This document shows positions 121 through 56,571 of a stretch of DNA of 64,000 bases, piece by piece (position 1 is the stretch's first letter; every line of letters starts with the position of its first letter). This DNA is from Octopus vulgaris. Lineage: Eukaryota. The notes beneath the pieces were generated by a model that searched no databases, was not told where the DNA came from, and saw only the letters and a list, made by a program, of their open reading frames with translations. The stretch lies in contig OX597837.1 in assembly GCA_951406725.2 (NCBI GenBank), positions 44,640,001-44,704,000 of the forward strand. The letters run 5' to 3'. A program made the position numbers and the translations under genes.

Positions 121-250
121 ATGTTTTCATATTCCTTGGTTGTTCTAACTTTAGTGCGGCTGGTTCACCTGCTGAGGTCATTGGGTCTGCTGGTTTTGTC
201 ATCTGTGCTCACCTATGGATTGCATTCACCGAAAAAGGTACATACTATAG
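121..250 (+). CDS. iGluR-family gene exon 1 (hydrophobic N-terminus, start of ATD)
   Basis: ATG at 121; MFSYSLVVLTLVRLVHLLRSLGLLVLSSVLTYGLHSPKKVHTI-G. Donor GTGCGT at 251, phase 1, joins exon 2 to give the ATD-like start VHTIGILVE. An acceptor-like ctaactttag ending at 154 means the true start could lie in an upstream exon. Confidence 0.65.
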
Positions 251-262
251 GTGCGTATAACG

Positions 263-801
<539 letters not shown>

Positions 802-921
802 GTTACTATTATCTCCTTTTAATTTTGTTTCCATTCTTACTGTGTGTCTTCCCAGCACCTAGGGCAAAGGATATAAATAGGGCTTGTATATATATTTGTA
901 TATATATATATATGTGTGTGT

Positions 922-954
<33 letters not shown>

Positions 955-1031
955 GCTACAAGAGGAATCGAAGTGAGCAGATACAGAGACATTTCAAGTT
1001 AACATATAAAGACCTTGGGTTGAAATGTGCA

Positions 1032-1083
<52 letters not shown>

Positions 1084-1232
1084 GTATACATGTAAAAAAG
1101 ATAAGAAACTTAATCAGCTGAAAATTTTAAATCTGCCTTCTCTTTTTACATGAATAAATATTTTCTACATTTAAACCCCAAAGTCTGTATCTGTCTATTT
1201 GAAATATTCACTCTCTCTCTATCCCTCTCCCT

Positions 1233-1281
<49 letters not shown>

Positions 1282-1470
1282 GACATAGATACATATATAC
1301 ATACATACATACATACATACATACATACATACATACATACATACATACATACACACACACATACATACATACATACATACATACATACATACATACATAC
1401 ATACATACATACATACATACATAGAGTGTGTGCAACACGATGCTGTTTTAAGTTTTGTTTTCTGTTTCAG

Positions 1471-1743
1471 TTGCAAAGATGCAGGCAGAGGGTGTCGCAG
1501 GAATCGTAGTATTAGCCATGTGTGACAACCAACTCTTGCTACATCAACTTCTGAGGCAGAAAAATATTCCTCACGTCCCGGTTCCTTCGACGTATTGTTA
1601 CCGCGATCATTTCGAGGAAGGTCGCTCCCCTTGGCGCTTACGTCAACGCGCCTCGACGTTGAGCCTAGTCATAAAAGACACGATCAAAGCACTTAATTTT
1701 CTTGCCATTAAAGAGATAATCATTTTCACTGACGGAACTTACA
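1471..1743 (+). CDS. iGluR-family gene exon 3 (ATD)
   Basis: tttcag/GTAAGT, 273 nt, phase 1-1; AKMQAEGVAGIVVLAMCDNQLLLHQLLRQKNIPHV...IKEIIIFTDGTY resembles the iGluR ATD. Confidence 0.85.
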
Positions 1744-1927
1744 GTAAGTATACATAAGCATTATTATATATTTATCATATGAAGTGTCTGTTTTCGCCAC
1801 AGTACTGCATACTTTGTATTACGTGTTTAGTAATTACAACTGCATCTTTGTAGAACCTTGGTAGCAATTGGATATGGACATACACTGCAGTATAACACTA
1901 ATTTGTATGTAACATACTGCAGCGTAA

Positions 1928-2160
1928 GGTGGCAAACTGGCAGAATCGCTAGCACGCTGGGCGAAATGCTTAGCGGTATTTCGTCTGTCGCTACGTTCTG
2001 AGTTCAAATTCCGCCGAGGTCGACTTTGCCTTTCATCCTTTTGGGGTCGATTAAATAAGTACCAGTTACGCACTGGGGTCGATATAATCGACTTAATCCG
2101 TTTATCTCTCCTTGTTTGTCCCCTCTGTGTGTAGCCCCTTGTGGGCAGTAAAGAAATAAG
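1928..2160 (+). mobile_element. tRNA-derived SINE family A (other copies about 5813-6050, 29655-29810, 33368-33580, 34960-35065, 51810-51960, 52357-52550, 54285-54715)
   Basis: ggcgagctggcaga..gttagca...gagttcaaattcc (A/B-box-like) followed by a conserved body, repeated many times in both orientations. Confidence 0.9.
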
Positions 2161-2269
2161 AAACGTTTGCACGCCGGACGAAATACTTAGTGACATGTCG
2201 TCCGTTTTACATTCAATTTTGGCGCAAGACCAGTAATTGGGGGTGGATATTAGGGCTGATGTGATCCTA

Positions 2270-2705
2270 GAAATTGTCTGACAGCCATGACTGGGTTCTC
2301 CTGCTCGTATGAGGAATACCGAATGTCATCACGCACCACCTGCTTGATGAGAAACTCAGACACTTCCATATCCCTGGCGATTGACCTGATTGACTTGGAG
2401 GAATAGCTGTCAGTCATGGCCTGGACCTTACCAACAAATTTAGGAGTGAGTTCTGTTCTTATCAGAACGATCAGAGTGAGTTTTCCGAGCTTCTGCACCT
2501 TCGTAATCACCATTAGACTCATCCAACTCTTTCTGAAAAATTCTGCACCGTCCTCAGATTGGCCTCCAAACACTCTGAAATGTTCTATTAGGAGCTTCTG
2601 GCTCGAATGTCAAGCAGTACAGCATGTCGTTTCCAAATTTCTGGCAGAGTGAATTGTCATGGTGTTGTCTCACTCACAGATGGTGCCCAACTGACCCTTC
2701 TATAC
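2270..2705 (-). mobile_element. Tc1/mariner-superfamily transposase N-terminal remnant
   Basis: SIRSIARDMEVSEFLIKQVVRDDIRYSSY HTH-like segment, disrupted. Confidence 0.6.
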
Positions 2706-3364
2706 TATGTAGTCGTCAAAATCAAAAACAAACAATGCGCATGCATGAAATTAAAAATATAAATGGCGATAGTTTACCTATCGCACCCTGTGTGTGTGTG
2801 TGTTTGTGTGTGTGTATATGTGTTTGTGTGTGTGTGTATGTGTGTTTTTGTGTGTGTATGTGTGTTTGTGTGTGTGTGTATGTGTGTATGCGCGCACATT
2901 TAGTGATTAAATGCACAAACTGTTGCTGCTTTGGTGGCCTAGTAGGTAAGGTGTTTAGAAGTAGTGACATAATACAGAGGTGGAGGTTTCAAATCTCTGC
3001 CAGGAAATAAGGGGGGTCTTACTAAACTTAAACGGCGGTGCATCAGCATGGCCGCAGCTCTGAGCTGAAACAAGACAAAAAAAAAAGCAAAAACAAACTG
3101 AAACCAATTTTATGCAAATATTCTGTCATCAAGTTCTAACTAATTATATCTAAATGAAATTATATCTAATGCTAATTATACCTAATACTTAAGAAGGTGA
3201 CAGACACACGGACGTTCGGCTTCTTAAATAGCCATTGTTAAAACAAGCTCTTTTTGTGTTGTCATTCATTATTAATTACACCACTATTCAGTCACAAGAT
3301 TAATTGTGAGTGTTGGTGATTGAACGAAAGAACTTTAGTTAATGCCTCGCTTAGTAACACAATA

Positions 3365-4441
3365 TCACTATTTCCAGTAAGTTGGGCGAAAACAACACGA
3401 TACTAATTTTCCTTTTTGTTCATGTAAGATCGGTTTCTTTACAATGTTCTACCAACGAAAAGAAACGTATAACAACCATTGTCTTATTATAAAAAAGTGA
3501 CACACAAAAATATTACCACGCCTCTGTTATCAGTATTATATAATCACATATTCAGCATAAGTTCATTCGGTGCTTTTACACCATTATCTCTTTGATATTT
3601 TCCAAGCCATGATAATAATAATAAAAAATGCAATCACAGATTAAACGGATGGAAACAGCAAGAAAGTAATATATTAGCATATCGCTGAAAGGAAATCATT
3701 GCGCAATTATAAATCTGTATAGTTTTAGTTCTATATTCATCTGAGCAATGAAGGATGTGTGGTTAAGATGTGCGCTTTGCAATTGCATAGTTCTGAGTTC
3801 ATTCTTACAGTGTGTCAACTTGGGCAAATGTCTTTTACTATAACCCTGACGTGTGAGAGAATTTGGTAGCAGGCACCTTAACCACACGGCCAATCGCCAT
3901 GTTGATTCGCTAGCTTCTGCACGCATTTTTTTTCTCTCCTTGTTTCTTTCCGTGTTTCTTTTCTGTGTATCTTTCTGTTGAAGAGCGTAGGCTCGAAACG
4001 TAAAAGACTTGTTTTATTTATATTCCTGAGCGCCATACTAATACAATTGTTTGTTTGTATTCCACCTGCCTTCGTCTTTTGTCTATTTTCATAAAGCTTC
4101 CCGTTATATATATATATATATATATATCTTTTACCTGTTTCAGTTACTTGAATGTGCCCATGCTGGGGCACCGCCTTGAAGGATTTTAATCGAACAAATC
4201 AACCTTAGGACTTTCTCTTAAGTCGAGTAGTCATTCAATCTTCTCCCTTACGAACCGCTAAGTTACTTGGATATAAACACAGCAACACCGGTTGTCAAGC
4301 GGTGGTGGGAGACAAACACAGGCCCAAAGACACACACACACATATACATGTATATATACATATATGCCTTCTACGATAGCCTCGGGCCGATCAAATCCTT
4401 CTTGAGTGGATTCGGTAGAAGGAAACTAAAAGAAACCCGTC

Positions 4442-4473
<32 letters not shown>

Positions 4474-5221
4474 CAATATTTTATAATTATGAGTATAAGG
4501 GTTCAGCAAAGATTTGCTTTACCACATACCGAACTTTAGAAATAGGAACCTTAGCTATAATTATACTCGTAATTATAAAATAGTGTTTAAGTTTACCGAA
4601 AAATGGTCCTTTTAATATGCCGAATTCTACTTGGTGGAATTATTAATTACTAGTTAATTAATTAATTTTACCCTTTATTATTATTATTATTATTATATAT
4701 ATGGCCGTATGGTTAAGGTTCTTGCTACCAAATTCTCTCACAAGTCAGGGTTATAGTAAAAGGTACTTGCCCAAGGTGACGCACTGTAAGAATGAACTCG
4801 GTACTAAGCGATTGCAAAGCGCACACCTTAACCACACATCCTTCACTGCTCAGATGAATATAGAACTAAAACTATACAGATTTATAATTGCACAATGATT
4901 TCTTTTCAGTGATATGCTAATATATTATTTTCTTGCTGCTTCCATTCGTTTAATCTGTGATCGCTTTTTTTTTTAATTATCATGGTTGGAAAATATCAAA
5001 GAGATAATGGTGTAAAAGCACCGAATGAACTGATGCTGCATATGTGATTATATAATACTAACAGAGGCGTGGTAATTTTTTTTGTTTTAACTTTTTTTAT
5101 AAGACAATGGTTGTTATACGTTTCTTTTCGTTGGTAGAACATTGTAAAGAAACCGATCTTACATGAACAAAAAGGAAAATTAGTATCGTGTTGTTTTCGC
5201 TTAACTTACTGGAAATAGTGT
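3365..5221. repeat. long inverted duplication (arms about 3365-3893 and 4700-5221)
   Basis: Near-identical ORFs on opposite strands (3696-3926 minus, 4701-4898 plus); continuous reverse complementarity by eye. Confidence 0.9.
3970..4007 (+). ncRNA. minimal hammerhead-like motif (related copies at 15351-15382 and 52957-52992)
   Basis: tcttt-CTGTTGAA-gag cgtagg ctc-GAAAC-GTA-aaaga. Core A6 is replaced by T, so activity is doubtful. Confidence 0.5.
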
Positions 5222-5462
5222 TATGCATACATTTATCTACCTAACAGTCCGTTAACAAAAGGGAACACAGCGTAAATAACGGATTGAAAAGGTTGCAAGA
5301 CGCAACGAAAATTTTAGGGAAATAAAAATAAGAAATAAGTGGAAATTCTACCGGTGAGTGTGTTACATTATAAGGCACAAAAAGAAAATGACTCTCCCCA
5401 GACACAACAGAATAATAATAATGTTCTATTTCTGTTTCATTTCTACACTGTCTTCTACGCAG

Positions 5463-5647
5463 ACATCAATCAAGCCAGTGTCATCTTACAGAGTCTTTCA
5501 GAAGAAAATATTAGATTTATGGCTTACCAAGTGAACTATACCAATGCCAGCTATAAAAGCGTACTGGAATGGACAAAGAAATCCATTAAACGAACCTACT
5601 TTCTACTGTTGACCTATGGTCATGGGTCAATGGAAATACTAAACTGT
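5463..5647 (+). CDS. iGluR-family gene exon 4 (ATD)
   Basis: ctacgcag/GTAGGT, phase 1-0; INQASVILQSLSEENIRFMAYQ...YFLLLTYGHGSMEILNC. Confidence 0.85.
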
Positions 5648-6720
5648 GTAGGTATCATTGTTTTTTTAAATACGTTGATGTCTTATTCATATATTTTTAA
5701 ACATTCTCGACCGCACATATTCAATACATGTGTTTTATTTGTTAGCCGGGTTGCTGTGGGTAGCTCCTGGAGGGATGACTCCCTCATTAGGCTGGGTGTT
5801 AAGAGACCTAAAAGGCGGCGAGTTGGCAGAAACGTTAGCACGCCGGGCGAAATGCTTTGTGGTATTTCGTCCGCCGCCGCTGCGTTCTCAGTTCAAATTC
5901 CGCCGAGGTCGACTTTGCCTTTCATCCTTTGGGGGGTCGATAAATTAAGTACCAGTTTCGCACTGGGGTCGATGTAATTGACTTAATCCCTTTGTCTGTC
6001 CTTGTTTGTCCCCTTTGTGTGTAGCCCCTTGTGGGCAATAAAGAAATAAGAGACCTAAAACTCATAGACAGGCGAGAAAACTCTCCTCCGATCCATTTCA
6101 GAAGAACGTAGCTTTTAGTTCGTTATTGAATTTAATTTTTCATATGCGTCATCGTGGCATACCAGCAAATGGTTTCTACACTATTTATATATAGTCAAAG
6201 AATGGCGATTCTATTTGTCCCCGGTCCGATTCAGGCATGTGATACTGGTAAGCCACAACAATAGCGAAATATCCATCACTCCTAGATCGAATTGGGGGCA
6301 ATCCCTCTTGCCATTCTATGACTCTCAGGTGTTTTAACATCCAAGCTAATGAGGTAAACGTCTCTCCAGGAGATATACTGTAGCAAACTGGAATTTCCAA
6401 TGAAATCGACAAAGACTACCCTTTTCAATTGCGCCATCAACCACTGAAACACCTGATACTCTTCTATATGTATCTCGATCACACTTACCATTAACACTCA
6501 TCATATACACTCATGCACACACGTGCACATATATATTGCATTCTGTAACATAATTTTCTTTTCCTGCATGTTAGGATATATATGTATATACATAATAGCC
6601 TTTTTCTCTTATTTATATATGTAATATAATTCATAGTCTTCGGACATTTTTTAAGTATGCTTGGCCACTGGTTTAAATTTATATTAATTAATGATATTAA
6701 TATCTACTCTTATTATTTAA

Positions 6721-6786
<66 letters not shown>

Positions 6787-6809
6787 GTGTGTGTATATAT
6801 ATATGCATG

Positions 6810-6843
<34 letters not shown>

Positions 6844-6896
6844 CGTTTAAATATTTGTTGTGCAAGATTTTTTATGTGAAGTCGTGTGTTGAAACA

Positions 6897-7043
6897 GATA
6901 TTGTTATATTTCGGAATGGTCATATTGCCAGTTTAGATTAAGATTAATGTAAAAAATAAATATCACTGAAGCAAAATAACACCAAATATATAGTGCGTGT
7001 GTTTTTATTGGCTAAACTGGCAATATGACATATTCCGAAATAT

Positions 7044-7049
<6 letters not shown>
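6897..7049. repeat. inverted repeat, arms about 40 bp, between (TA)n tracts
   Basis: atattgttatatttcggaatggtcatattgccagtttag / ctaaactggcaatatgacatattccgaaatataacaatat. Confidence 0.85.
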
Positions 7050-7089
<40 letters not shown>

Positions 7090-7192
7090 GTATATATATA
7101 TATATGTATATTTACATATATATATGTATATATATATATATATGTATGTATATGTATATATACATATATATATGCATACATACATACATACA

Positions 7193-7267
<75 letters not shown>

Positions 7268-7405
7268 TTATTTATACATATATACATTCAGTTGAACCGT
7301 CCAACCCATGCTAGCATGGAAAGCGGACGCTAAACGATGATGATGATGATGATGATGATGATAACATGGTGATATGGAATGATTATTTCTTTCTGTATTT
7401 TATAG

Positions 7406-7588
7406 GCAAGAGACTTGGAACTAATCCGTTACAACACATTTTGGATAATTGCCAACTTGGACATGAATATCGAGGAGTTAAAAACTCTTGACCTGCAGAA
7501 TGTTCGAGCAAACATCCTCTACATAAAGAAGCCTTGTATTTCTTCATCTGTGGGTATATCTGGTGAGCAGAATGGATTTAATATATCA
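7406..7588 (+). CDS. iGluR-family gene exon 5 (ATD)
   Basis: ttatag/GTAAGT, phase 0-0; ARDLELIRYNTFWIIANLDMNIEELKTLDLQNVRANILYIK. Confidence 0.85.
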
Positions 7589-8076
7589 GTAAGTAGACAG
7601 ACGTAAATTCTTTTATGATTATAGATAGACTTAGATGTACATATATATCTCTATAAATTTCATACCCAACCTATATAAAACTATACTGGTATATTTCACT
7701 GTTTATTTTAAATTACAAGAAATATGCTCTAAAATTATTAGCAAATAAAATATATATATTTTTAACATAGTCCTTTAATTTAACTTTACTTTATTAATAC
7801 CAAAAATTACTATTTAATAATTAACTATAAATATATGTTAAGTTAGTATAGAAATATTTAAATATGGAATTATTTCTATATTCTCCATCCCTCTATTGTA
7901 AAAAAATACTGAAAATATTCTAAAATATTCTTTTTTTGTGTGTGAGCCATGTGCAGCCGGAGTGTAGTTTCTTCTCATCTAAAGACAATCTGCTATTCAG
8001 CTCTCTTGAAAGTTGCTTGTTACAACTCTGTGTGTGTGTGCTTATGCATTTATCCGAAGTTATATCTCTCCTTCAG

Positions 8077-8211
8077 ATTACCGACAATTATCTGCTGCAA
8101 ACGGTATCCCGTTACTTTACATACTGTCTGAATATGAGCGAGACGACACCTCAACCATCCGAAATATGGCAAGCGGAGCTGTTCTTCCCAATTGCAGAGA
8201 TGGAGTTTGAC
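8077..8211 (+). CDS. iGluR-family gene exon 6 (ATD, divergent)
   Basis: cttcag/GTAACA, 135 nt, phase 0-0; ITDNYLLQTVSRYFTYCLNMSETTPQPSEIWQAELFFPIAEMEFD. Family similarity is weak. Confidence 0.65.
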
Positions 8212-8430
8212 GTAACATTTTTATTGATTCCATTTTGTCTTCTTTATATAATTATTTGTTCATTTGCTCGTACATTTTCATAATAGCATCCTATATGGCA
8301 AGTTTCTAACTATAGAGATTCTAGTTTACTGCATTAATGATGGCGTGTCGACAGATATACATAGTTATCTTCCAATGTATACGTGTGTATGTCTGTATAT
8401 CGGTCACTATGTGTATGAATATATATATAT

Positions 8431-9421
8431 ATAATTTCAACAATTGAGGGTAAAATTAATTAATTATTAATCAATTTCACCAAGTATTCAGTATGTAAAG
8501 GGACCATTATAGGCGAATTCAAAATATTACATTATATATAAGGGCTTAGTAAAATAAATTACTTTGCCACATACTGAACTCATTAGAAATAGCAGCTAAA
8601 GAAATTTCTTCAGCTATTTCTAATACTTAAAGAAGATCTCTCTCAGATAGTGTTTGCCTAAACCAACTCACAAAAGTATGGGGGAAAAAACATTAAAAAA
8701 TCAAGTGCAAAGGTTATTTGAGAACGTACGTTTCTAGATTAGTCAATTCGACATTTCTTTCTTCAGCTCAGAATTCCTTGAATCGGATTTGGGAACACTG
8801 AAAGTCGGGAGCATACCCTTTCGGCTTCTAATCACCTCTAGAATTCTGCTCGAACTAAAAGTGCTATCAAATTCGAATATGCAAGCGAAGAATTTCTGCT
8901 CTCCCTTTCCACCAGCGTGGGTTAAAATTGACAAACACCATGTATTAACGGTGAAAACCGCAGCATTTAGCAGAGAGAGATGAATTATAATTTCAACAAT
9001 TGAGGGTAAAATTAATTAATTATTAATCAATTTCACCAAGTATTCAGTATGTAAAGGGACCATTATAGGCGAATTCAAAATATTACATTATATATAAGGG
9101 CTTAGTAAAATAAATTACTTTGCCACATACTGAACTCATTAGAAATAGCAGCTAAAGAAATTTCTTCAGCTATTTCTAATACTTAAAGAAGATCTCTCTC
9201 AGATAGTGTTTGCCTAAACCAACTCACAAAAGTATACGTTCTCAAATAACCTTTGCACTTGATTTTTTAATGTTTTTTCCCCCATACTTTTGTGAGTTGG
9301 TTTAGGCAAACACTATCTGAGAGAGATCTTCTTTAAGTATTAGAAATAGCTGAAGAAATTTCTTTAGCTGCTATTTCTAATGAGTTCAGTATGTGGCAAA
9401 GTAATTTATTTTACTAAGCCT

Positions 9422-9430
<9 letters not shown>
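8431..9430. mobile_element. direct-plus-inverted repeat block, Penelope-like pseudo-LTR remnant
   Basis: About 8431-8679 is repeated directly at about 8987-9234, then the reverse complement of about 8533-8729 follows at 9235-9430. Flanked by (TA)n and contains an HHR-like motif. Confidence 0.65.
8719..8770 (-). ncRNA. hammerhead-like motif inside tandem/inverted repeat
   Basis: Minus strand: tgag-CTGAAGA-aaga...tcta-GAAAC-GTAC-GTT-ctca; first helix II pair mismatched, GUU triplet. Confidence 0.6.
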
Positions 9431-9458
<28 letters not shown>

Positions 9459-9491
9459 ACCAAGAAAAAAGCAGCAAGAATGGATTAGTAG

Positions 9492-9580
9492 TTTAGTACA
9501 ATTGTTTCATACTAAGAGCAATTTTATTTGAAGCTGCAAATATTGCAGCAAATACAAATGTCCAGTATTCATCAGCTAAA
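9492..9580 (-). ncRNA. type I hammerhead ribozyme motif (canonical core)
   Basis: Minus strand: tttag-CTGATGA-atact...agtat-GAAAC-AATT-GTA-ctaaa; helices I and II each pair over 5 bp. Confidence 0.85.
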
Positions 9581-9772
9581 TCACATATATGTTTTCCAGA
9601 CATCCTAGAGGGTTTGATTATCCTCATGAAGTATTAGGAGTGAGTTCTATGAAATTTTAAGTCAAATTATTAGCAGACTTAAAATGCTTTCTAATGATGC
9701 ACAGTTTTATAAAAGGTTTTGAAAAAAGATTTGAATTCATTGGAATTCACTTGAATCTTAATTGTTTTTTGC

Positions 9773-9859
<87 letters not shown>

Positions 9860-10030
9860 TCAAGCACACAGATATATATATATACACACTTTATGTACTG
9901 ACTTTTGTTCTGTTAAACATTACGAACGTTTAGCTTCCACAATACACATATAAATTGAATACACTTAGATTAATTACCACCATAATACCACGCCGTCGCT
10001 GTACCGATTCTTACTTCTTTCTCTGTTTAG

Positions 10031-10258
10031 GAAACCAACGACAACATGTTTATGGTTGATCCAGAAGAGGTTGTCGATCGAAAATACGATATATTTCGTG
10101 TAGATGGCTACGAAGAGGAGCCCACCTACAAGCGAATAGGAGAGTGGTGTTCTGAAGTAGGTTTAGTTTTCATGGTGACGCCTATAGACGCAAGAGATGT
10201 CTTTCCCAACGCTTTACCTGGATTGGGTAACGCAACCCTAAAGGTTGGAACCGTCGTG
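10031..10258 (+). CDS. iGluR-family gene exon 7 (ATD end, S1 start)
   Basis: tttag/GTGAGT, phase 0-0; YKRIGEWCSEVGL...VFPNALPGLGNATLKVGTVV. Confidence 0.9.
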
Positions 10259-10559
10259 GTGAGTAGTCTTGAATCGTCATTGTAGTGTTTTTTTTCTTTT
10301 GCCCTCTACTGTTTATTTGTTTCAGTCATTAGACTGCTGCTGTCCCGGGGCACCGTCTTGAAGGGTCTTAGGAGAAGAAATCGAACCGCAGTACAGATGT
10401 TTGTTTAACCGTATGAAAGTCATTCTATTGGCCTCTGATGTCGACTGCTGAGTTATGGCGACATAAACAAACCAACAATGATTGTCAAACGATGTGTAAA
10501 GATACACACATACACACATGTTTGAGTATGTGTGTATAAGTAAATAAAATAAAGTTTCC

Positions 10560-11432
10560 CTTCTCAAGGATATATTTGATTAGATAAAATGCTTAAATAG
10601 TCTTAACTATTAATTTTGCCAAGAAGGGAAACCACTGGGCCATCGGATTTCCAAGATATAGCCCCCCACCCATCATCACAGATCCCCCTCTATGTTTAAC
10701 AGAAGGCAGTCTGGGCCAAATGCTTCTTTTGGCTCTCTCCATACGTATACTCGGCTGGTAGTCAGAAATAAGGTAAAGGATGACTCATTCGAGAAAACAA
10801 CATTCTTCCACTGCTCTAGGAACCAATTCTGTAGGTTTTTACTCCACTCTAAACACTTTGCGACGTTTGTTTTAGAAAGTAGTGGTTTTCTGATTGCAAC
10901 TCTCCCGTGAAATCCGGTTTTATGCAGCTCCCAGCGAACAGTTTTTGTGGAAACAGGGTTGTCGAAGTGGTATTTAAGCTCTGCAGTAATTTTGGGAGCT
11001 GTACTTTTGTGATCCTTTCTAACAATTCGCGTAAGAGTCTGATGGTCTCTATCTGAATATTTTGGTTTTCTTCCGGAGTTTTGTTTCGAAGAGGAGGTTT
11101 TTTTTCCCTCTTTCTCAAAGGCTGTCATTACTTTCGAGATAGAACTCCTTAATACACCAAACATTTCGGCTGTTTTTGTTATGCTAGCGCCTGCCATATG
11201 AGCACCAACAATTTGACCTCTTTGAAAGTCCGACAGATCTATCATTTAAATGAATTTTAATTACCTTTTTCTGGTGATATCTAAGAAGAAACAACAATTT
11301 TAGCAAAACATATTAAGCAACACTAATGATAAATAAAAAAAAAACACCATAAAAATAACAAATTTTTGACGGTTTTAGAGATATTTCAAAATTACGATGC
11401 TAGTTTTTTTTCCATTTTTTGTCCAACCTCTG
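10560..11432 (-). mobile_element. Tc1-family transposon remnant (3'-truncated, frameshifted transposase)
   Basis: ORF 10676-11245 DLSDFQRGQIVG...GRKPK...RKPLLS...WKNVVFSNESSF continues out of frame as WGAISW. TIR-like end CAGAGGTTGGACAAAA with TA at 11433. Confidence 0.92.
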
Positions 11433-11460
11433 TATTTATATATATATGTTTATGTTTCAG

Positions 11461-11552
11461 CTGGCCCCATACATCACTAGAGTAAACGGTACCGGATGGG
11501 AAGGATTCTGTATCGATATACTCAATGAAATGAGTAGTACCATGAACTTCAA
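11461..11552 (+). CDS. iGluR-family gene exon 8 (S1)
   Basis: tttcag/GTTAGT, phase 0-2; LAPYITRVNGTGWEGFCIDILNEMSSTMNF matches the EGFCIDLL motif. Confidence 0.95.
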
Positions 11553-12252
11553 GTTAGTCGGTTACTTCACTTATACAATTTATGTATGTGTATATGTGTA
11601 TGTTTGTCTGTCTCTCTATCTTTCTGTCGGTCTGTCTATATGTATGCATGTATGTATATTAAACCAAAACGAAACAAAAGCCATCTGTTAACAAAACGAG
11701 GTAAGTTCACGACCGAGATTGTTTGAGGCTTAGACAAATAGAAAGATTTAGTAATTATGACGTTTCGGAGATTGTCCTTTTTCAGAGTAACTTGTAGAGC
11801 GGAAAGAAGATATTAAAAATGAGGAATAGCCGAGAAATCGAAGCAGAAGTACCGTCCTCGTACATATATGCACACAGCAACCACATTAACCGCAAATCAT
11901 ATTCTGCTGTCTTCATAAAGAAAACACATTAGAAAGCACATAAACAAAGTAGTTCTAAATACAAGGACTGCATTTCCAGTAAAACACTGGTTCAGTCTGG
12001 TACTGTGTTTAATATTATCAACTTTACCACTTCCTTGTGCTGAACACACCGAACTTTGTGGTCGAAGTTTATAATCGTTCACTCAACCTGAGAATTATTA
12101 ATTAACAAAAATGTTATAATTAAAAATCTATTATAATTTTATACAAGAATTACTAATAATAAAAAAACGAATAGATCTGTTTCTTCGCCTTTATAATTTT
12201 ACAGACATATCGATCCCTTATTTATCTCCTTTGTTCATTTTTCTCCTTTCAG

Positions 12253-12346
12253 TTATATACTGCAAGAACCTGAAGACAAGATGTTCGGTGTTTATGATAA
12301 TGCAACACATAACTGGACTGGAGTTATAGGAATGGCATACAACAAC
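12253..12346 (+). CDS. iGluR-family gene exon 9 (S1); not in ORF track
   Basis: tttcag/GTAAGT, phase 2-0; YILQEPEDKMFGVYDNATHNWTGVIGMAYNN matches D-x-x-[YF]G...WNGMIG. Confidence 0.95.
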
Positions 12347-12525
12347 GTAAGTTCCTTAGAATGCTATCTTCATTGTTGTTGCTTTTCAAACCACGAACAG
12401 CACTGATCGATCTGGTCTATAATCAGTATTGATCCACTCATATACCTTACAATTATTTTGCGTGTGTATCAAAGACAACATTGTTAATTATATCTACTTG
12501 GAGTATCAAACACAACATAGTTTAA

Positions 12526-12745
12526 CCCTTTCGTATTCAGATTATTTTGTCTAATGTAATGTTTTTTCATTGACATTGCTTATAATTAATCATGCTTTAT
12601 TTTGTAGCCATAAAGTTTTCATGATGAGATTGTATATTTCTAGAATGGCATTGAAGGGTAGGTGTGATAGGTTGGATCTGACTAGTTAGAGCATAAAACA
12701 GGAAGCATGTTTGGGCCGGATATGGCCTGTTTAAATACTAAAGGG
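12526..12745. mobile_element. piggyBac-type MITE (related copy about 25928-26145)
   Basis: TTAA-CCCTTT...AAAGGG-TTAA ends. Confidence 0.75.
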
Positions 12746-13039
12746 TTAATATCTTTACCTTTTAATTCAAGATAGAATGGTGTGATTTAAAGGGGATCTG
12801 GTTGGCGTTTTTAGCAGAATCAACGACTAAATAGACGCTCTGGTGTAAGATGTATACCGCACAAAATATCTTACAGTGATTAGCTAAGTCAGTTTTCACT
12901 CTGAGATCACATCATCATCTCGTGTCCGGGTCAAGTTTGATTTTCATCCCTCTCGACTAGATAAAAGAAGGGTCAATGAAACCAACATAAATGAAAATAA
13001 TCCCCTCGAAAGAAGTTTATTTTAGAAATATTTTACATT

Positions 13040-13455
13040 TATCAAGTCATCCCATAAGTAATGTCCAGACTTCTTCATTTGAAATTTGTAAATGCTTTAA
13101 CAGTATTTTAGAATATCTAATGGCATTAAGTAATATTTATATGTATTTGGACATATTTAAACTAGTTAAATTTCACTTTGCAGGATAATCTAATTGAAAC
13201 TTCACTAATTGAAGCTCTTCAAATATGGAAGTGTCTAAGAAGCATTTGAGGCACATAATGCTTTATGAGTGTAAAAAAGGGAACTCTACAGCTTAAGCGA
13301 CTCGAAATATTCACTTAGTTTATGGCGATGGGTGCCTAAATGAAAGAACTTGCTGAAGATGGTTTGTAAAATTCAGAAGTGGAGATTTCAGCCTTGAAGA
13401 TGATGAGGCCCAAACAGAACGTCCAATTGAGTTTGATGACAAAGTCTTTTCGCAG
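13040..13455 (+). mobile_element. mariner 5' remnant
   Basis: From 13225 MEVSKKHLRHIMLYECKKGNSTA*ATRNIHLVYGDGCLNERTC*RWFVKFRSGDFSLEDD (mariner HTH, with stops). Confidence 0.85.
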
Positions 13456-13529
13456 AACTGATACTTATTTCATCGACCCCGAAAGGCAGAGTCGATTCCG
13501 AACGTAAAAACAGACGAAATGTCACAGCC

Positions 13530-13589
<60 letters not shown>

Positions 13590-13806
13590 GTGATTTCATT
13601 TAATTGCTACAAGAGCGAAGGATGAGGTGGGGTGGGGGGCAATACAAAGACAGACATAAAGTGTTGGGGGTTTACATATAATGAAATGATAACAAAAAAG
13701 TAAGTATACACTGAAAAAGAAGGGACGTATGCATAACATACAAAGATTAAGAAAAGAAAGTCCCGTGCCCTATATTCATCTTTTTTTTCTTCTCCTTCCT
13801 CTCCAG

Positions 13807-14125
13807 GAAGTCGATCTCGGAATCGGACCTATTACACTGACAGCCCATCGTTTTGAATACATTGACTTCACGCATCCGTTCTCTGAAGACGGAATTGGTA
13901 TCGCCTACAGACTGGAAGATGACCGTGTCTCCATGGACATGATATTTCGACCATTTCAATTGTGGGTTTGGATACTAACGCCTGGTGCCATATTTTTTGT
14001 CGGTATCTTCCTGACAGTAATCAACAAGATCAGCGCCATATTCAGATCTACCAAAGCGTGCGAAGAATTAAACTGTTCCTACTACGAGAATTGCTGGTAC
14101 ACGTTGGGAACAGCCCTCATGCAAG
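13807..14125 (+). CDS. iGluR-family gene exon 10 (S1 end, M1, M2 pore loop)
   Basis: ctccag/GTAAAA, phase 0-1; EVDLGIGPITLTAHRFEYIDFTHPF...FRPFQLWVW...WYTLGTALMQ-G. Confidence 0.97.
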
Positions 14126-14294
14126 GTAAAAACGTCGAAGTCACCCGATTTAATTTTACGATTTTTATAACACCTGCCTTCGTGAGCATCCATTTAGTGG
14201 TGATAGTGGTTATGTGCTTCATGTGTGTATTTCTGTATGTATGTTTGAGTTATATTTGCGCATATGCATATGTAAATATATATATATATATATA

Positions 14295-14480
14295 CTTTAT
14301 TTAAAGCAGCAGAAATTCAACAAAACCTGTTACTCTGAGTTTCCCGTTCAGTTGCCGTTCATCGGACAGTTTTTGCTAGAACGCGATATGTCGGTTCTAT
14401 TCTAGTAAAAACTGTCCGATGAACGGCAACGAAACTCAGAGTAACAGGTTTTGTTGAATTTTCTGCTGCTTTAAATAAAG
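14295..14480. repeat. fold-back hairpin, arms about 85 bp, with an HHR-like motif in each arm
   Basis: ctttatttaaagcagcagaaattcaacaaaacctgttactctgagtttc... pairs with ...gaaactcagagtaacaggttttgttgaattttctgctgctttaaataaag. Confidence 0.9.
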
Positions 14481-14549
14481 CATATTACTCTACCCCTGGT
14501 ATTTGAGTACTCTTTTTTCCACATTGTTTCACATTTATGTGTTTACTCC

Positions 14550-14595
<46 letters not shown>

Positions 14596-14847
14596 TTTGA
14601 AGGAATATTATTCCTAATTTACAAGGAAAAATTCAATTTAGAAATACTAAATCAAATTTCACAAAATATAATATATATATATATATATATATATAAATTA
14701 GAAAAAGCACCTTTTATCAATTCAAAATGAACAATTAAATTACACCATCTAGAAAATTACATATAATAGAATTATTAGAATTAAAATAACAATAACGATG
14801 ATTAAGTAAATTGCAAAATAATAATAAAAACGTATATAAATATATAT

Positions 14848-15220
14848 AGGCGTAGGAGTGGCTCTGTGGTAAGTAGCTTGTTTACCAACCACATGGTTCC
14901 GGGTTCAGTCCCACTGCGTGGCTCCTTGGGCAAGTATCTTCTACTATAGCCTCGGGCCGACCTAAACCTTGTGAACTGATTTGGTAGACGGAAACTGAAA
15001 AAAGCCCGTCGTATATATGTATATATGTATGTGTGTTTATATGTTTGTGTGTCTGTGTTTGTCTCCCCCCCCCCCCGCCAATATCGCTTAACAACCGATG
15101 CTGGTGTGTTTATGTCCCCGTAACTTAGCGGTTCGGCAAAAGACACCAATAGAATAAGTACTAGACTTACAAAGAATAAGTCCTTGGGTCTAGTTGCTCG
15201 ACTAAAGGCGGTGCTCCAAG
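14848..15220 (+). mobile_element. tRNA-derived SINE family B with internal (TA)/(TG) microsatellite
   Basis: aggcgtaggagtggctctgtggtaag...gggttcagtccc...ccttgggcaagt... Other copies about 4130-4442(-), 17770-18088, 20535-20770, 21030-21435(-), 26290-26461(-), 35438-35775, 42540-43165, 47815-47980(-), 55170-55600(-), 58610-59085(-). Confidence 0.9.
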
Positions 15221-15819
15221 CCAGGTCCTGTTGTCTCCCTTGTCATCCACTTCTCCAACCACTTCCTTCCTTCCGGTCAATTCAACATATGCATCCATTA
15301 ATCCAGCTATGTTCTTTTTTCCTCTACAGATATTTTCTCTCCTCATTTCATTGTGTAGAAGAGCGTAGGCTCGAAACGTCAAGGAGTTCCTCTATTTTTT
15401 CCTGAGCGTCAAACTAATACAACCTATTTGTTGTTACCTCAACCGTCTCTGTCTTTCGTTTTTCTACCATTTTGAACCAATATATATGTACAAATATTTA
15501 ACATGTTACATGCATAAAATTGTGGCCTTGCAAGGGAACCACCTTGAAGATTTTTTTTTTTTAGATGTATGACTCGATCCCAGTACATATTTCCTAACCA
15601 TGATACTTATTATATCTGTGTCTTTCGTCGAACCGCTAAGTTACATATCGCACTTGTTCCACTTCTAATTACTTTTAAAATGAAGTCCTATCATTTCGAG
15701 CCACTATATATATATGTGTGTGTGTGTGCGTTTGTGTGCGTGTCTGTACATGTGCGTGTGTATTAATATATACAAATTTCCGATTCACATATATATATCG
15801 ATATACAATCTACCTGCAG

Positions 15820-16037
15820 GTCAAAACAACGAACCAAAGAACGTATCTGGTCGAATCGTGATCATCTTCTGGTGGCTCTTTGTCATCCTGTTGACCACCT
15901 ACTACACAGCCTTCTTAGCTGCTATTCTTACCGTCAAAGTCTCCAAATTATCCATCACAAGTCTAGAAGATTTAGCACATCATCCTTCTATAAAGCCCAT
16001 AACACTCTCCGGATCAACGTGGTGGTCATATTTTTTG
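15820..16037 (+). CDS. iGluR-family gene exon 11 (M3, S2 start)
   Basis: ctgcag/GTCAGT, phase 1-0; QNNEPKNVSGRIVIIFWWLFVILLTTYYTAFLAAILTV...SITSLEDLA...TLSGSTWWSYFL. Confidence 0.97.
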
Positions 16038-16454
16038 GTCAGTCGTGATTTTCTATAGATTCTGTGATTCTCGTCTCCAATTTGCTTTTATTTATGTGTT
16101 TGTTGTACCTATTTTGTTTATGATATTTAGGATTGTATTTGTCTTTTTGTGAATATTATGCTATTTAATCAATGGATGCTTATACAGTGAAGTCTGCCGT
16201 AACATTCCATATGTAAATGAAGGCGCTGGCGTGGCTGCGTGGCACGAAACTTGCTTCCCAACCACATGTTCAGTCCCACTGCGTGGCAACTTGGTCGAGT
16301 GTCTCCTACTACAGCCTCGGGCCGACCAAAGGCTTGCAGGTGGATTTGGCAGACAGATAGATTCTTGCTCGATGGGAGATTAATAATAAAAATGATCCCA
16401 TCTCAATTTAAGTAGATTATAAAGATTATTTTCTCTTTCACCTTCCGACTCTCT

Positions 16455-16485
<31 letters not shown>

Positions 16486-16571
16486 TCTCTCTCTCTCTTC
16501 GTAAGACTTGAGAGATAGACAAATTAAATAACATAAGTATTGACCCACGGTCTAGAGAAACTGACCACGGT

Positions 16572-16672
16572 GATTATTAGCGGGTGGAATTTACCATGGC
16601 GGAATATACCATGGTGGAATTTACCTTTGGTGAAATTTACCAGGTGGAATTTTCCGTGGTGGAATTTACCTA
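16572..16672. repeat. 15-nt quasi-palindromic minisatellite (GGTGGAATTTACCAT)
   Basis: About 6-7 tandem degenerate units read directly. Confidence 0.85.
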
Positions 16673-17147
16673 GAGCCCAATTTACCACAGACAGACAGAC
16701 AGACTCACACACACGCGCGCGCGCGCGCGCACACATTGGATGGCTATAAATGATTTATTACAAGTAACAGTTATTATGCTTAGTCTACAATACCCTGTCT
16801 GCCATTCCTGATCCGCCAGCATTACACGCTGGGCAATTCTTTCGAGGAATTAGAAAGTGCGTCTTATACGCCGGCAAAATCAGATTCTCTCTTTCTCTCT
16901 CTCTCTCTGCATGCATACATACATTCATATATACACACATACAGACACACACATACATACATACACACATACATACATACATACATACATACATACATAC
17001 ATACATACATACATACATACATACATACATACAGACCAGGCAGTGGCTCTCAAGGCTTCTGATCTTAACTGACTGGCAGTGTTATCATGTATATTGCTTT
17101 GTCTTAGTATTTTTGGTATTTTGGTATTTTATAATTTGTCTTAACAG

Positions 17148-17398
17148 AAATCACGGAATCCATCGTATCGGACGATTGGTCGAGAGATCCGCAGGAGTCC
17201 GAATGTCACAGATACTGCCAGGATAATGGAAATGGTGTTGACCGAAAACTTTGCTTATGTCATGGACAGCTCAGTGGTGAGGTATTTCGCTGCAAAGGAC
17301 AAGAAGGCTTATGCATTCGTCGAAGAGAAAGGTTACAGGCAGAGCCTAGGGTTCATCACGCCAAAACACTCAGCAATTCGAGAAATGCTTTCTTTCAA
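17148..17398 (+). CDS. iGluR-family gene exon 12 (S2); not in ORF track
   Basis: taacag/GTAGGT, phase 0-2; KSRNPSYRTIG...ENFAYVMDSSVVRYF...QSLGFITPKHSAIREMLSF. Confidence 0.95.
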
Positions 17399-18148
17399 GT
17401 AGGTAACACACATTTCGAATTAAAATACTTCCTTATTTTGTTTTTTTAAATTTTTGTGAAGGCGAAGACGTTATTGTGTGGTTAAGAGGGTCGTTTCACA
17501 AATATGTTGTTGGGAGTTCGATCCCGTAGCAGATGATAATGAGGCAGATGTTTTTTCATGTATTAGCGGCTTTTTAAGGATAGTGGTGGTTTCCGTGTGA
17601 TATCCTGCAGGACGAAAACCAAATTCTGCCAGAGTTCATATGACCTCGGTAGTGCGAATGGCCGTCCAATAGCTGCGAGTGAGAGATATTCTTTTATTCT
17701 TTTACTCGATTCAGTCATTTTGATTGTGACCATGCTGGAGCACCACCTTTAGTCGAGCAATTCGACCCCAAAGCCTTGTGGGTGGATTTGGTAGACGGAA
17801 ATTGAAAGAAGCTCGCATGTATATGTATATATATATATGTGTGTGTGTGTGCCTGTGTGTGTGTCTGTGTGCATACGTTTGTGTGTCTGTGTTTGTTCCC
17901 CCAGCATCGCTTGACAACCGATGCTGGTGTGTTACGTCCCCGTAACGTAGCGGTTCGGCAAAAGACACCGATAGGATAAGTACTAGGCTTACAAAGAATA
18001 AATCCTGGGAGTCGATTTGCTCGACTAAAGGCGGTGCTCCAGCATGGCCGCAGTCAAATGACTGAAACAAATGAAAGAATAAAAGAGTAATTATTAATTT
18101 GCCTTTACAGCTGTATGCTCACGTTATTATTTTGGGAAATAATATCGT

Positions 18149-18233
<85 letters not shown>

Positions 18234-18242
18234 CACACGCAT

Positions 18243-18276
<34 letters not shown>

Positions 18277-18445
18277 GAGACAGAGAGAGAGAGAGAGATG
18301 GAGACAGACATACAGACAGAGAAAGAGAGAAATAAATTTACGTAGATCCTAAAAAATACAGAATACTAAGGGGAAAATATACAGACAGCCGCCTGAAGAT
18401 AAGACCTCTCACTATTTTATGTTTATTTTTGTTGCTCTGTTTCAG

Positions 18446-18746
18446 TATCATTAAATTTCAAGAGCTGGGTCTAATTGAAAAATGGCGAAGGCAATGGTGT
18501 AACTGTACCAAGCAACTTTTGTTGCGAAAATCTGTTGAAACTAAAGCTTTGGCCTTGGAGGACCTGGGTGGCGCTTTCACGGTAGCCGGTGGTACGGCAT
18601 TGGCGAGTATTCTTTTGGCATTCATGGAAAAAGTTATAAGCAAATACAGAAAAAGCAAAGTCCTTGAAACGCCCATAGAAGAAAGAAATGAGCAGAAAGA
18701 CTTAGAACAATCTTCTATAAGACTAAAACTGTTCCGTAGACGTTGA
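18446..18746 (+). CDS. iGluR-family gene exon 13 (S2 end, M4, C-tail, stop)
   Basis: tttcag acceptor, phase 2; IIKFQELGLIEKWRRQWC...ALALEDLGGAFTV...LKLFRRR*. The 13 exons sum to 2565 nt (854 aa plus stop). AATAAA near 18807. Confidence 0.95.
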
Positions 18747-18912: not shown

Positions 18913-19990
18913 CACAGGCCAACAAAAATTTTTTTTTTTCTCTGTTGTCAAAAAACTTGGACCGAAACTACGTTTTTTGGGGGTTTTTTTGACACTCAGA
19001 ATCTGAAAATGACATCCATTTATTACCATTACATCAAGATTTTAAGATACTGGATCCATAAAATTTTTATTGTTTTTCAATCAAACACCTTTGAAGAACA
19101 AGGCAGAACATACAAACTTACTTAGAAATTGGTTTTTTCTTCAAAACCAGAATGTTTCCGTAGAATTCTAGTAAAGAACTAATAAAAAGCTGGAAATTCC
19201 TACTGACAAATTACATCAATATTTATACAGTAACGCCCCGGGATACGAGTGAATTCGATCATGGAAATGGCTCGTAAACAAAATAAATCTCGTAAACGCT
19301 CGTAAACTCGGTGTCTCGTAAAGCGGGTCCTCGTAACGTGTGGTATTACTGTATCTAATTTGCGATAAGTTTGCGTTTGGATGATTCTCTTGAGTGCTGA
19401 ACCTAAAGAAAATCCCATAGCAAGTTCCAGCTACAGTCCGCCATCATAGAAAAGTCCCATCTGTCTCAATGGAAACATTCTCCACCCTCGTCGCTTGTGT
19501 CACCAAGATTTTCAGGGAATTTATCAAGGTGACTGTGGAGAGAGTACATCTTTATGCTCATATTTGCTCCCTATTTTTGAAGGTTCCCCAGCATGTTGTT
19601 GACTACTTCGATGTACTTGTCTGCTATTATCTTGTGACCCAGAAAGTCATTTACGACTTCTACAAATGAATTCCATGCTGCCGCTTCAATGCAGTTCAAT
19701 AAATTTACAGACTTCCCAATTTTCATGAATTTTCTGATTTGAGACCCATCATATAATCCAGCTTTTATCTTTTCATTACTCGGACCGGGAAATGTGCTAC
19801 GGATATAATGAAAACACGATTCAGTTTATCCAGAACTTGAACAAACTGCTTCACAAGGTCGAGTTTCATATGGATTAGAGGTAGGGTGAATTTTCTCCAG
19901 TTTAACTAAGGGCTCTTCAAGACATTAAAAGACTCCCGAACTAATATTCGCGGCGGCAATTCTTTGATCACCCAATAGCAACAAACCACC
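18913..19990 (-). mobile_element. Chapaev-3 (CMC)-like DNA transposon remnant
   Basis: Minus-strand translation across frameshifts: EEPLV..LPLIHMKLDLVKQFVQVLDK..FPGPSNEKIKAGLYDGSQIRKF..AAWNSFVEVVNDFLG..MSIKMYSLHSHLDKFPENLGDTSDEGGECFH..MMADCSW. CAC terminus at 18913. Family name is recalled from motifs. Confidence 0.7.
19228..19351. mobile_element. Tigger/pogo-type MITE nested in the Chapaev-like remnant
   Basis: TA-CAGTAA...TTACTG-TA ends; internal ctcgta repeats. Confidence 0.65.
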
Positions 19991-22019: not shown

Positions 22020-22920
22020 ATGGGCTGCCAGGATCATCATCTTCAACACTGACAGTGAAAACCTCCTCAGCAACAGGAACAACTTCAACCTGTGGAAGAA
22101 ATATTGATGCTGGTGACAGCACATCTGGTTGACTCGAAGTCGATGGCAGTGGATTATCAAGTGTGGACACCGTTGCTGTTTCTTCCTGCTTCCGAGCTAT
22201 TTTCTTGAATATATCGTGCAGTGTTTATCGCTTTACATACTTGGGTCTTTCTCTAATAAATTTATCTTGAAGCAAGTAAACATTTATGATTTCATGTCCA
22301 CTTACAAATCTTCGTTGCTCCAGTCTGGCCAGCAGTCCAGTTGTCAACGTAATTAACCTGTCAATAAAGATTCTTTCTGCCACATCTTCCTCATTTTCAT
22401 CACTGCTTTCATTTTCATCCCTACCTGTACAGGCATTTCTCCCCGGACTTTTAACAATATCTACAATTTCAGAATCAGTGTAATGATGAACTGAAGGCAC
22501 ATCATCATCAACATCCATCCATTCCGTTAAACCATCTTCATTTATCCTTGATGAAAGCTCCTTGGCATCAAGATTAGTTGCATCTTTAACATAAGCAATA
22601 AGTTCCTGTGTTGGCTGCTTTTCTTTGGAAACCCCAAACCCTCAAAATCATCTCCAGTGTCTTCGTTAGAACGAGAAGCAAGCATTAAACTTGGCCACGA
22701 TTTATGACATCCATTTTCCAGTGTTGATGTTTTCACACATTTCCATGCATTGGCAGCAAATCAATGATAAAATGGGAAGGAATGAGCATCAAAACATAAA
22801 TGGTGCCGCCAGAAAACAGTGGCGCGCCAATAAAGTAAATTTGAAAATGTGCTCCGAAATCCACGCCGGAAATCTGAAAGAACCGGATTTTCGAATGTCA
22901 CCAGTAATGCACATTTAATT
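22020..22920 (-). mobile_element. pogo/Tigger transposase C-terminal remnant
   Basis: WMDVDDDVPSVHHYTDSEIVDIV...DENESSDENEED acidic C-terminus typical of Tigger/jerky-like proteins; fragmented. Confidence 0.6.
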
Positions 22921-43840: not shown

Positions 43841-44149
43841 TATATATATTAATTGATAATACTGCACTAATTTTGATTCTGTCGGGACCCAATTATATAT
43901 CCGAACTTAATATATTCTCCTAATATTTCTTTTCTTTCTAATTTTATTCTTATCATTATATATTTTCCCCATTGCTTCAAAACACGAACTCATATAAAGA
44001 ATCTTGCAAACCAAATCCAAAAACGAAACATACATCAATGATTTTGAAGTTTCTTCCAGTTGTGGGAATTTATTTGTTTATGACCTAAGCTGAATTTGGT
44101 GGTTCGTGTAGAATTTGCATTAATTATATCAATTACATTTGTCTTTCAG

Positions 44150-44233
44150 TACAAGCAAAGTGTAGCTATTGCTGACGTCAATGAAAAGCGGCCGTATTTT
44201 ACAATGTCATCTTATGTCACTGATATTGATGAG
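44150..44233 (+). CDS. cadherin exon 5 (EC1-EC2 linker)
   Basis: tttcag/GTACGT; YKQSVAIADVNEKRPYFTMSSYVTDIDE (DxNDNxPxF-like). Confidence 0.92.
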
Positions 44234-44379
44234 GTACGTATCACCCTGTATAGAATAACATGTGTGTATAAATGTATGCATGCATGCATGTATGTATATC
44301 TATATATATATGCGTGTGTGTGCGTGTGTGTTTACACACACACGTTATCTATCTATTTATCGATCTACTTATCTCTCTC

Positions 44380-44465
<86 letters not shown>

Positions 44466-56455: not shown

Positions 56456-56571
56456 TGCTTATATGTATGTACGTATGTACACATATATAAGCTTTTCATA
56501 CACCCTACTTATCTATGTCTCTGTACACACACACACACACATATGTAATGCAAATATTCATTGTTTTCCAG

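Follow-up and report, generated by a model that had tools for sequence, protein, structure and literature searches.

An Octopus vulgaris receptor gene from a spiralian clade at the apparent boundary between delta receptors and ionotropic receptors

The question raised by this locus is which kind of receptor, and for which agonist, is encoded in a 64,000-nucleotide stretch of Octopus vulgaris contig OX597837.1 (positions 44,640,001 to 44,704,000, hereafter the window), where a gene of the ionotropic glutamate receptor (iGluR) family shows a ligand pocket unlike that of glutamate binders. A preliminary description of positions 12253..17398 had proposed a non-glutamate agonist and a glycine-type, chemosensory or orphan receptor that retains a full amino-terminal domain (ATD). 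The gene is an annotated orthologue within a catalogued, functionally unstudied spiralian clade and not a one-off. Its non-glutamate pocket signature is a routine prediction for a single gene, and the worth of the clade lies in its identity, as delta receptors or as members of the ionotropic receptor (IR) family.

An intact receptor gene and its ligand pocket

All the pocket residues named in that description (GluA2 numbering) were present, and their codons were located on the + strand: F450 at 12284-12286, P478 at 13828-13830, T480 at 13834-13836, R485 at 13849-13851, S653, T654 and W655 at 16014-16016, 16017-16019 and 16020-16022, M704 and D705 at 17262-17264 and 17265-17267, and L732 at 17346-17348. 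V708 corresponds to residue 703 of the annotated protein (P0001). The ungapped register assumed at 653-655 was borne out by phmmer alignments to GluK2 and GluK5, which were gapless there, and by five profiles, built from AMPA/kainate-like (69 proteins), delta-like (16), own-clade (33), IR-C/D-like (14) and IR25-like (4) sequences. Positions 650-659 were ungapped in all five profile alignments, with posterior class '*' across 653-655, and the spacing from T617 to F659 was 42 residues in 63/69 AMPA/kainate-like and 26/34 own-clade rows. The AlphaFold model begins a helix at residue 654, a model built on the present alignment and so not independent. A shifted register, with GST at 653-655 and a downstream insertion, had been raised as the alternative and is unsupported by the five profiles and by the spacing.

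Residues were compared across 143 rows, obtained from the 150 best representative matches (P0001 replacing its near-copy P0002) after removal of 7 short or over-long cores. The census assigned 138 of the 143 rows to groups, whose labels come from a handful of rows with names (frog GluD1, starfish delta) and from comparison of motifs by eye with printed sequences, the latter being the basis of the IR-C/D label. The AMPA/kainate pocket (G653/T655/E705/Y732) is not matched, since the octopus protein has S, W, D and L at these positions; T655 is found in 63/69 and E705 in 64/69 AMPA/kainate-like rows. The delta pocket of S653, hydrophobic 655 and D705 is matched. Three further delta-typical residues are not: the acid at 402 (14 of 16 delta-like rows), W704 (12 of 16) and Y732 (16 of 16) are Leu, Met and Leu in the octopus protein, and Glu at 402 occurs in none of the 29 filled clade rows.

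Several traits are new relative to the preliminary description. Besides the missing acid at 402, the pore has M586 at the Q/R/N site and N590, the M3 gate is altered by Y615 and F619 (YYTAFLAAI replacing SYTANLAAF), and the C718 cysteine, which forms the C718-C773 disulfide of GluA2, is lost; it is kept in 140/143 rows and missing in 3. The pocket and gate motifs are identical in the O. bimaculoides and O. sinensis proteins, which also have L402, M586/N590 and the C718 loss. The Q/R/N site is Glu in 11/34 clade rows, which could change calcium permeability, and the octopod paralogue P0008 has Lys at this site together with S653/D654/K655. Other octopod paralogues, P0019 of Argonauta and P0110, have Met in place of D705.

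The region 12253..17398 comprises exons 9-12 only, and the gene runs far beyond both ends. It is an intact iGluR-family gene whose 13 exons span 121-18746 of the + strand; its introns are GT-AG and its 854 codons contain zero stops. Its product is O. vulgaris CAI9740384.1 (P0001, 843 aa), automatically named 'kainate 3-like', and is identical to it from residue 2 onward. The first residue differs and, given a splice acceptor at 153-154, the annotated ATG may be split with an upstream exon. Exon 1 (121..250), compared with the P0001 and P0005 N-termini, encodes the signal peptide and the first ATD strand; its start is uncertain between an in-frame ATG at 121 and the acceptor at 153-154, where an upstream exon would give the A of the annotated ATG. 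The ATD continues through exons 2 (459..614), 3 (1471..1743), 4 (5463..5647), 5 (7406..7588) and 6 (8077..8211), the last in a low-confidence part of the structure model. Exon 7 (10031..10258) holds the ATD end, the linker and the start of S1, and S1 continues in exon 8 (11461..11552), whose first codon is the Leu at position 402, and in exon 9 (12253..12346), which contains F450. Exon 10 (13807..14125) carries P478, T480 and R485, M1 and the M2 pore loop, with the Met of the Q/R/N site at 14119-14121, and exon 11 (15820..16037) carries N590, M3 with its gate and S653/T654/W655. The S2 residues M704, D705, V708 and L732 are in exon 12 (17148..17398), which has Lys at C718 and lacks an IR25-type beam insertion. 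The end of S2, M4, a short cytoplasmic tail and the stop are in exon 13 (18446..18746). A tblastn search of the whole window with six proteins as queries found no second iGluR gene.

The gene is transcribed and spliced at three joints, 12346/13807, 14125/15820 and 16037/17148, which were bridged by contigs in 3 of the 4 runs compared, each of the 3 from a different study: the first in an RNA-type contig, the second in two runs and the third in one. These contigs skip the introns and so fit spliced RNA, the RNA status of the runs being a guess, as their records bear no RNA label; exons 1-7 lie outside the stretch compared. In a single raw RNA run from a related species, exon-bin depth was under 1 to about 1 read, and intronic repeats dominated the tables. 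The W655 codon contains no A, so adenosine-to-inosine editing is unable to alter this residue.

The iGluR clamshell and the M1-M2-M3-M4 channel are present (PF10613, E 7.8e-28; PF00060, E 1.1e-25). When superposed on domains with bound glutamate or D-serine, the modelled ligand-binding domain matched at about 2 A across about 245 residues (Z about 31). GluK, GluA2 and GluD2 domains were all tied near this value in superposition, so the fold cannot pick the receptor class. Pfam ANF_receptor gave no match for the octopus protein itself. Despite this miss, the full ATD proposed earlier was confirmed by a profile from the N-termini of 10 relatives, which scored the octopus protein at 62.6 bits when none of 200 shuffles exceeded 3.8, and by a fold search in which the N-terminal half of the O. 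bimaculoides orthologue had the GluD1 ATD as top match (E 4.7e-10), with a poor global superposition (TM 0.37, root-mean-square deviation 17.6 A).

A spiralian clade near delta receptors and IRs

The octopus protein sits in a clade of 33-34 rows, to which P0141 is weakly attached, and the 14 named relatives are molluscs, one annelid and one flatworm. R485 is kept in 34/34 clade rows, S or T at 653 in 33/34 and D705 in 31/34, and position 655 is mostly L (15 rows), W (8) or T (4). The non-glutamate signature is therefore real in the octopus protein and not peculiar to it, being the clade norm. Outside the clade, W655 occurs in 8/14 IR-C/D-like rows and in none of the delta-like (0/16), IR25-like (0/5) or AMPA/kainate-like (0/69) rows. 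Six of the eight clade rows with W655 form one subclade, whose three named members are caenogastropods, and the nearest paralogue of the octopus protein has Lys at 655, suggesting repeated gain or loss of the Trp. There is a hint that P0008 and P0157 lie in a linked cluster with orthologues.

All trees were unrooted, and the proteins compared included no sequence named as NMDA or epsilon. In a 56-row mixture-model tree the clade was supported at 100/99 and joined to the IR-C/D-like group at 100/99, apart from the delta-like, IR25-like and AMPA/kainate-like rows; a 42-row tree that included the ATD joined the two at 96. Constrained trees were compared by the approximately unbiased (AU) test on 40 rows under LG+F+G4, with shortened searches for two constrained trees, a setting more exposed to long-branch effects. 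Grouping with AMPA/kainate-like receptors was rejected (p-AU 0.0008). Grouping with delta receptors, tested without an outgroup, was not rejected (p-AU 0.06), and the two were separate branches in all four free trees. The constraint uniting the clade with IR-C/D and IR25-like rows equalled the free tree, and IRs without the clade were not rejected (p-AU 0.22). The clade ATD profile ranked delta receptors top, with median bits of 87.5 (n=9) against 36.7 for AMPA/kainate-like (n=48) and 14.4 for IR-C/D-like rows (n=8). These results point to spiralian receptors at the delta/IR boundary, in which an ATD resembling that of delta receptors is joined to an IR-like core, and the earlier suggestion of an orphan or chemosensory receptor is consistent with the tree. 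When the core region and an alignment of 10 sequences were used in word-index searches, only the query and one ant kainate receptor were found, which is weak evidence, and sequence-atlas matches were generic iGluR clusters.

The 95% identical O. bimaculoides orthologue, XP_014773475, is listed as GluD1-2beta in Table S10 of Zeng 2021 (PMC8437780), and in the available part of that source two neighbouring accessions are listed as GluD1-2gamma and epsilon. Lottia 110568, whose printed sequence bears the clade motifs when compared by eye, was named Grid1-2alpha in the same work and LgigIR297 (IR297) by Croset 2010 (PMC2924276). Mollusc IR names were taken from the accessible parts of PMC11682238 and PMC12837371. 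In a preprint that describes the beam and the full ATD of IR93a, IRs are placed as sister to delta receptors (bioRxiv 10.64898/2026.09.30.755715). The clade sits at this proposed junction, and would bear on the origin of chemosensory IRs and on cephalopod taste-by-touch. Its limpet member carries conflicting names, GluD and IR297. The 312-sequence set of Andouche 2021, known here only as cited by others, may already name this clade. No paper on the function of the gene or on the naming conflict was found, subscription papers such as Andouche 2021 being outside the search, nor was the octopus protein found in the available supplements of Singh 2025 (part) and Audino 2024. Rosano 2024 (PMC10861852), in the text available, names the role of protostome 'delta' receptors as a gap.

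Candidate agonists and roles

From these features we infer a candidate ligand, partner and tissue. The gene encodes a full-length iGluR-family subunit with an ATD, a clamshell ligand-binding domain, three membrane helices and a pore loop. R485 would hold the ligand carboxylate, and P478, T480 and D705 its amine, facing a putative side-chain site walled by W655, M704, V708, L732, F450 and L402. The second carboxylate of glutamate relies on the hydroxyl of T655 and the room left by G653, and both appear lost, so the agonist would be a neutral, small or hydrophobic amino acid. Closure of the clamshell would pull M3 and open a cation pore. On weaker grounds, because the gate, the pore tip and the D2 disulfide are degenerate, the subunit would act in a heteromer, with its paralogues or with IR25a. 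Judged on sequence, it is almost an even chance, falling slightly short of one, that the protein is a heteromeric cation-channel subunit binding a neutral amino acid, with a site unsuited to glutamate.

Glutamate is indeed unlikely to be the preferred agonist, as the preliminary description held, given the replacement of G653, T655 and E705, the 653/655/732 pocket rule (Ramos-Vicente 2018, PMC6307864; Singh 2025, PMC12226733, as far as available) and the placozoan receptor in which a swap at these positions turned glycine into glutamate gating (PMC6307864 / PMC12226733). The glycine-type label does not follow. The starfish GluD has GABA (gamma-aminobutyric acid) as best agonist, with millimolar glutamate still active, the authors concluded that pocket residues alone do not fix selectivity (PMC10861852, available text), and the delta Trp704 is Met here. 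That the oyster 'GluD' alone gave no current and had low surface expression (PMC10861852) would suit a subunit needing a partner.

Several points weigh against a neutral amino-acid subunit. The place of the oyster protein in the clade is itself only inferred, the literature surveyed, as far as available, reports no ligand for any clade member, and delta-receptor selectivity was not predicted by pocket residues (PMC10861852). Arg and Asp are kept in the vestigial, inert pocket of IR8a (bioRxiv 10.64898/2026.09.30.755715), so that such conserved anchors can be vestigial. That W655 faces into the pocket, and so would exclude glutamate by its bulk, is an assumption. The octopus protein is long-branched (best identity outside Octopus 37%), and some residue changes may therefore be drift.

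The degenerate gate, M586/N590 and the lost cysteine would also fit a structural, non-gating subunit, its pocket vestigial or filled by W655, that serves assembly, trafficking or trans-synaptic adhesion through the delta-like ATD. Inert IR8a, amphioxus GluE7 with its aromatic residue at 653 and silent vertebrate GluD offer precedents in the sources as far as available. Such a role is unlikely: the beam of the co-receptors is missing (41 residues here, 75-77 in 4/5 IR25-like rows), all four amino-acid anchors are intact, and functional IR tuning subunits typically have a degenerate M3 too (bioRxiv 10.64898/2026.09.30.755715). The tree position next to IR-C/D-like receptors, the W655 common to these and the name IR297 would suit a tuning subunit that partners IR25a in the suckers or the olfactory organ and detects a water-borne cue other than an amino acid, such as an amine or organic acid. 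We regard this as quite unlikely, as long-branch attraction could explain the tree, the delta grouping was not rejected, the clade ATD is much nearer delta ATDs, and two Babylonia clade members matched none of 21 Babylonia IRs of a 22-gene list, compared by eye over the first 400 residues available.

Invertebrate delta receptors of starfish, acorn worm and acoel are GABA-gated (Rosano 2024, PMC10861852), and the listing of the orthologue as GluD1-2beta, the delta-like ATD and the retained S653 and D705 could indicate an excitatory GABA receptor of this kind. This is decidedly improbable, for the upper-lobe acid at 402 linked to GABA potency in GluD1 (PMC10861852) is Leu here and the delta W704 and Y732 are also replaced. 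That the protein is simply a glutamate-gated subunit whose pocket has diverged, as the automatic name would have it, is highly improbable. Kainate receptors were the top phmmer matches among solved structures by a small margin, and some glutamate binders carry S653 according to the pocket-rule literature available, but W655 and D705 depart from the AMPA/kainate-like residues and that grouping was rejected.

A broader proposal is somewhat unlikely, namely that 'protostome GluD' receptors are ATD-retaining, IR25a-dependent tuning subunits from close to the base of the IR radiation and not homomeric deltas, the octopus paralogues being varied sensors of water-borne amino acids and Trp655 replacing the Trp704 of glycine receptors as space-filler. 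Octopod paralogue pockets read S-T-W and S-D-K, and those of Argonauta S-S-T/S without D705. If true, the names GluD and IR297 would no longer conflict, and the silence of the oyster 'GluD' would be accounted for.

Other features of the window and likeness to known receptors

Intron 7 contains a Tc1/mariner-type transposase fragment (10676-11245, - strand; PF01498, E 3.8e-14). Intron 6 (8430-9420) contains a perfect 250-base direct repeat (8430-8679 and 8986-9235) and perfect inverted arms 186 and 137 bases long, which may reflect recent rearrangement or an assembly artefact. Introns 10 and 12 (14850-15220 and 17700-18080) carry a very high-copy repeat, with thousands-fold depth in all four runs, which is presumably an octopus element like a short interspersed element (SINE). 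Downstream, a 302-codon open frame (56491-57399, + strand) has a single membrane-like segment and a tail rich in Ser. What we take to be a short cadherin-like motif (44084-44488, + strand) lies upstream of it. The two are perhaps a neighbouring single-pass gene; neither frame gave a significant Pfam match. Open frames at 22225-22641 and 19571-19825 (both - strand) look like transposon remnants by eye, and gave none in the Pfam search.

Among known receptors, the octopus protein resembles the 'protostome GluD' group, for which the literature surveyed, as far as available, reports no function, in S/T653, hydrophobic 655, D705 and the ATD. It differs from this group in W655 (mode L), M704 (mode T), V708 (mode Q), the missing C718 cysteine and the gate residues Y615 and F619. 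With deuterostome and acoel delta receptors (GluD1/2, AcaGluD; PMC10861852, in part) it has in common S653, hydrophobic 655, D705 and V708, and their ATD is the closest to its own by profile and fold; unlike them, it lacks the acid at 402, W704 and Y732 and formed a separate branch in the four free trees.

Mollusc IR-C/IR-D-type receptors, the sister group of the clade in the trees, and the ATD-bearing IR93a are similar in frequent W655, a degenerate pore tip, no beam and a long N-terminus. The IR-C/D-like receptors differ in far more eroded ATDs, another M3 motif and W402/W450/Y732. The traits of IR tuning subunits, no beam and a degenerate M3 gate, are matched in the octopus protein, and the D2 beam of the co-receptors IR25a and IR8a is not. 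Glycine-gated epsilon receptors and GluN1, neither of which could be recognised as a group in the trees, resemble it in S653, hydrophobic 655 and D705. Amphioxus GluE1 has Trp at 704, as GluN1 presumably also does, whereas the octopus protein has its Trp at 655 and Met at 704.

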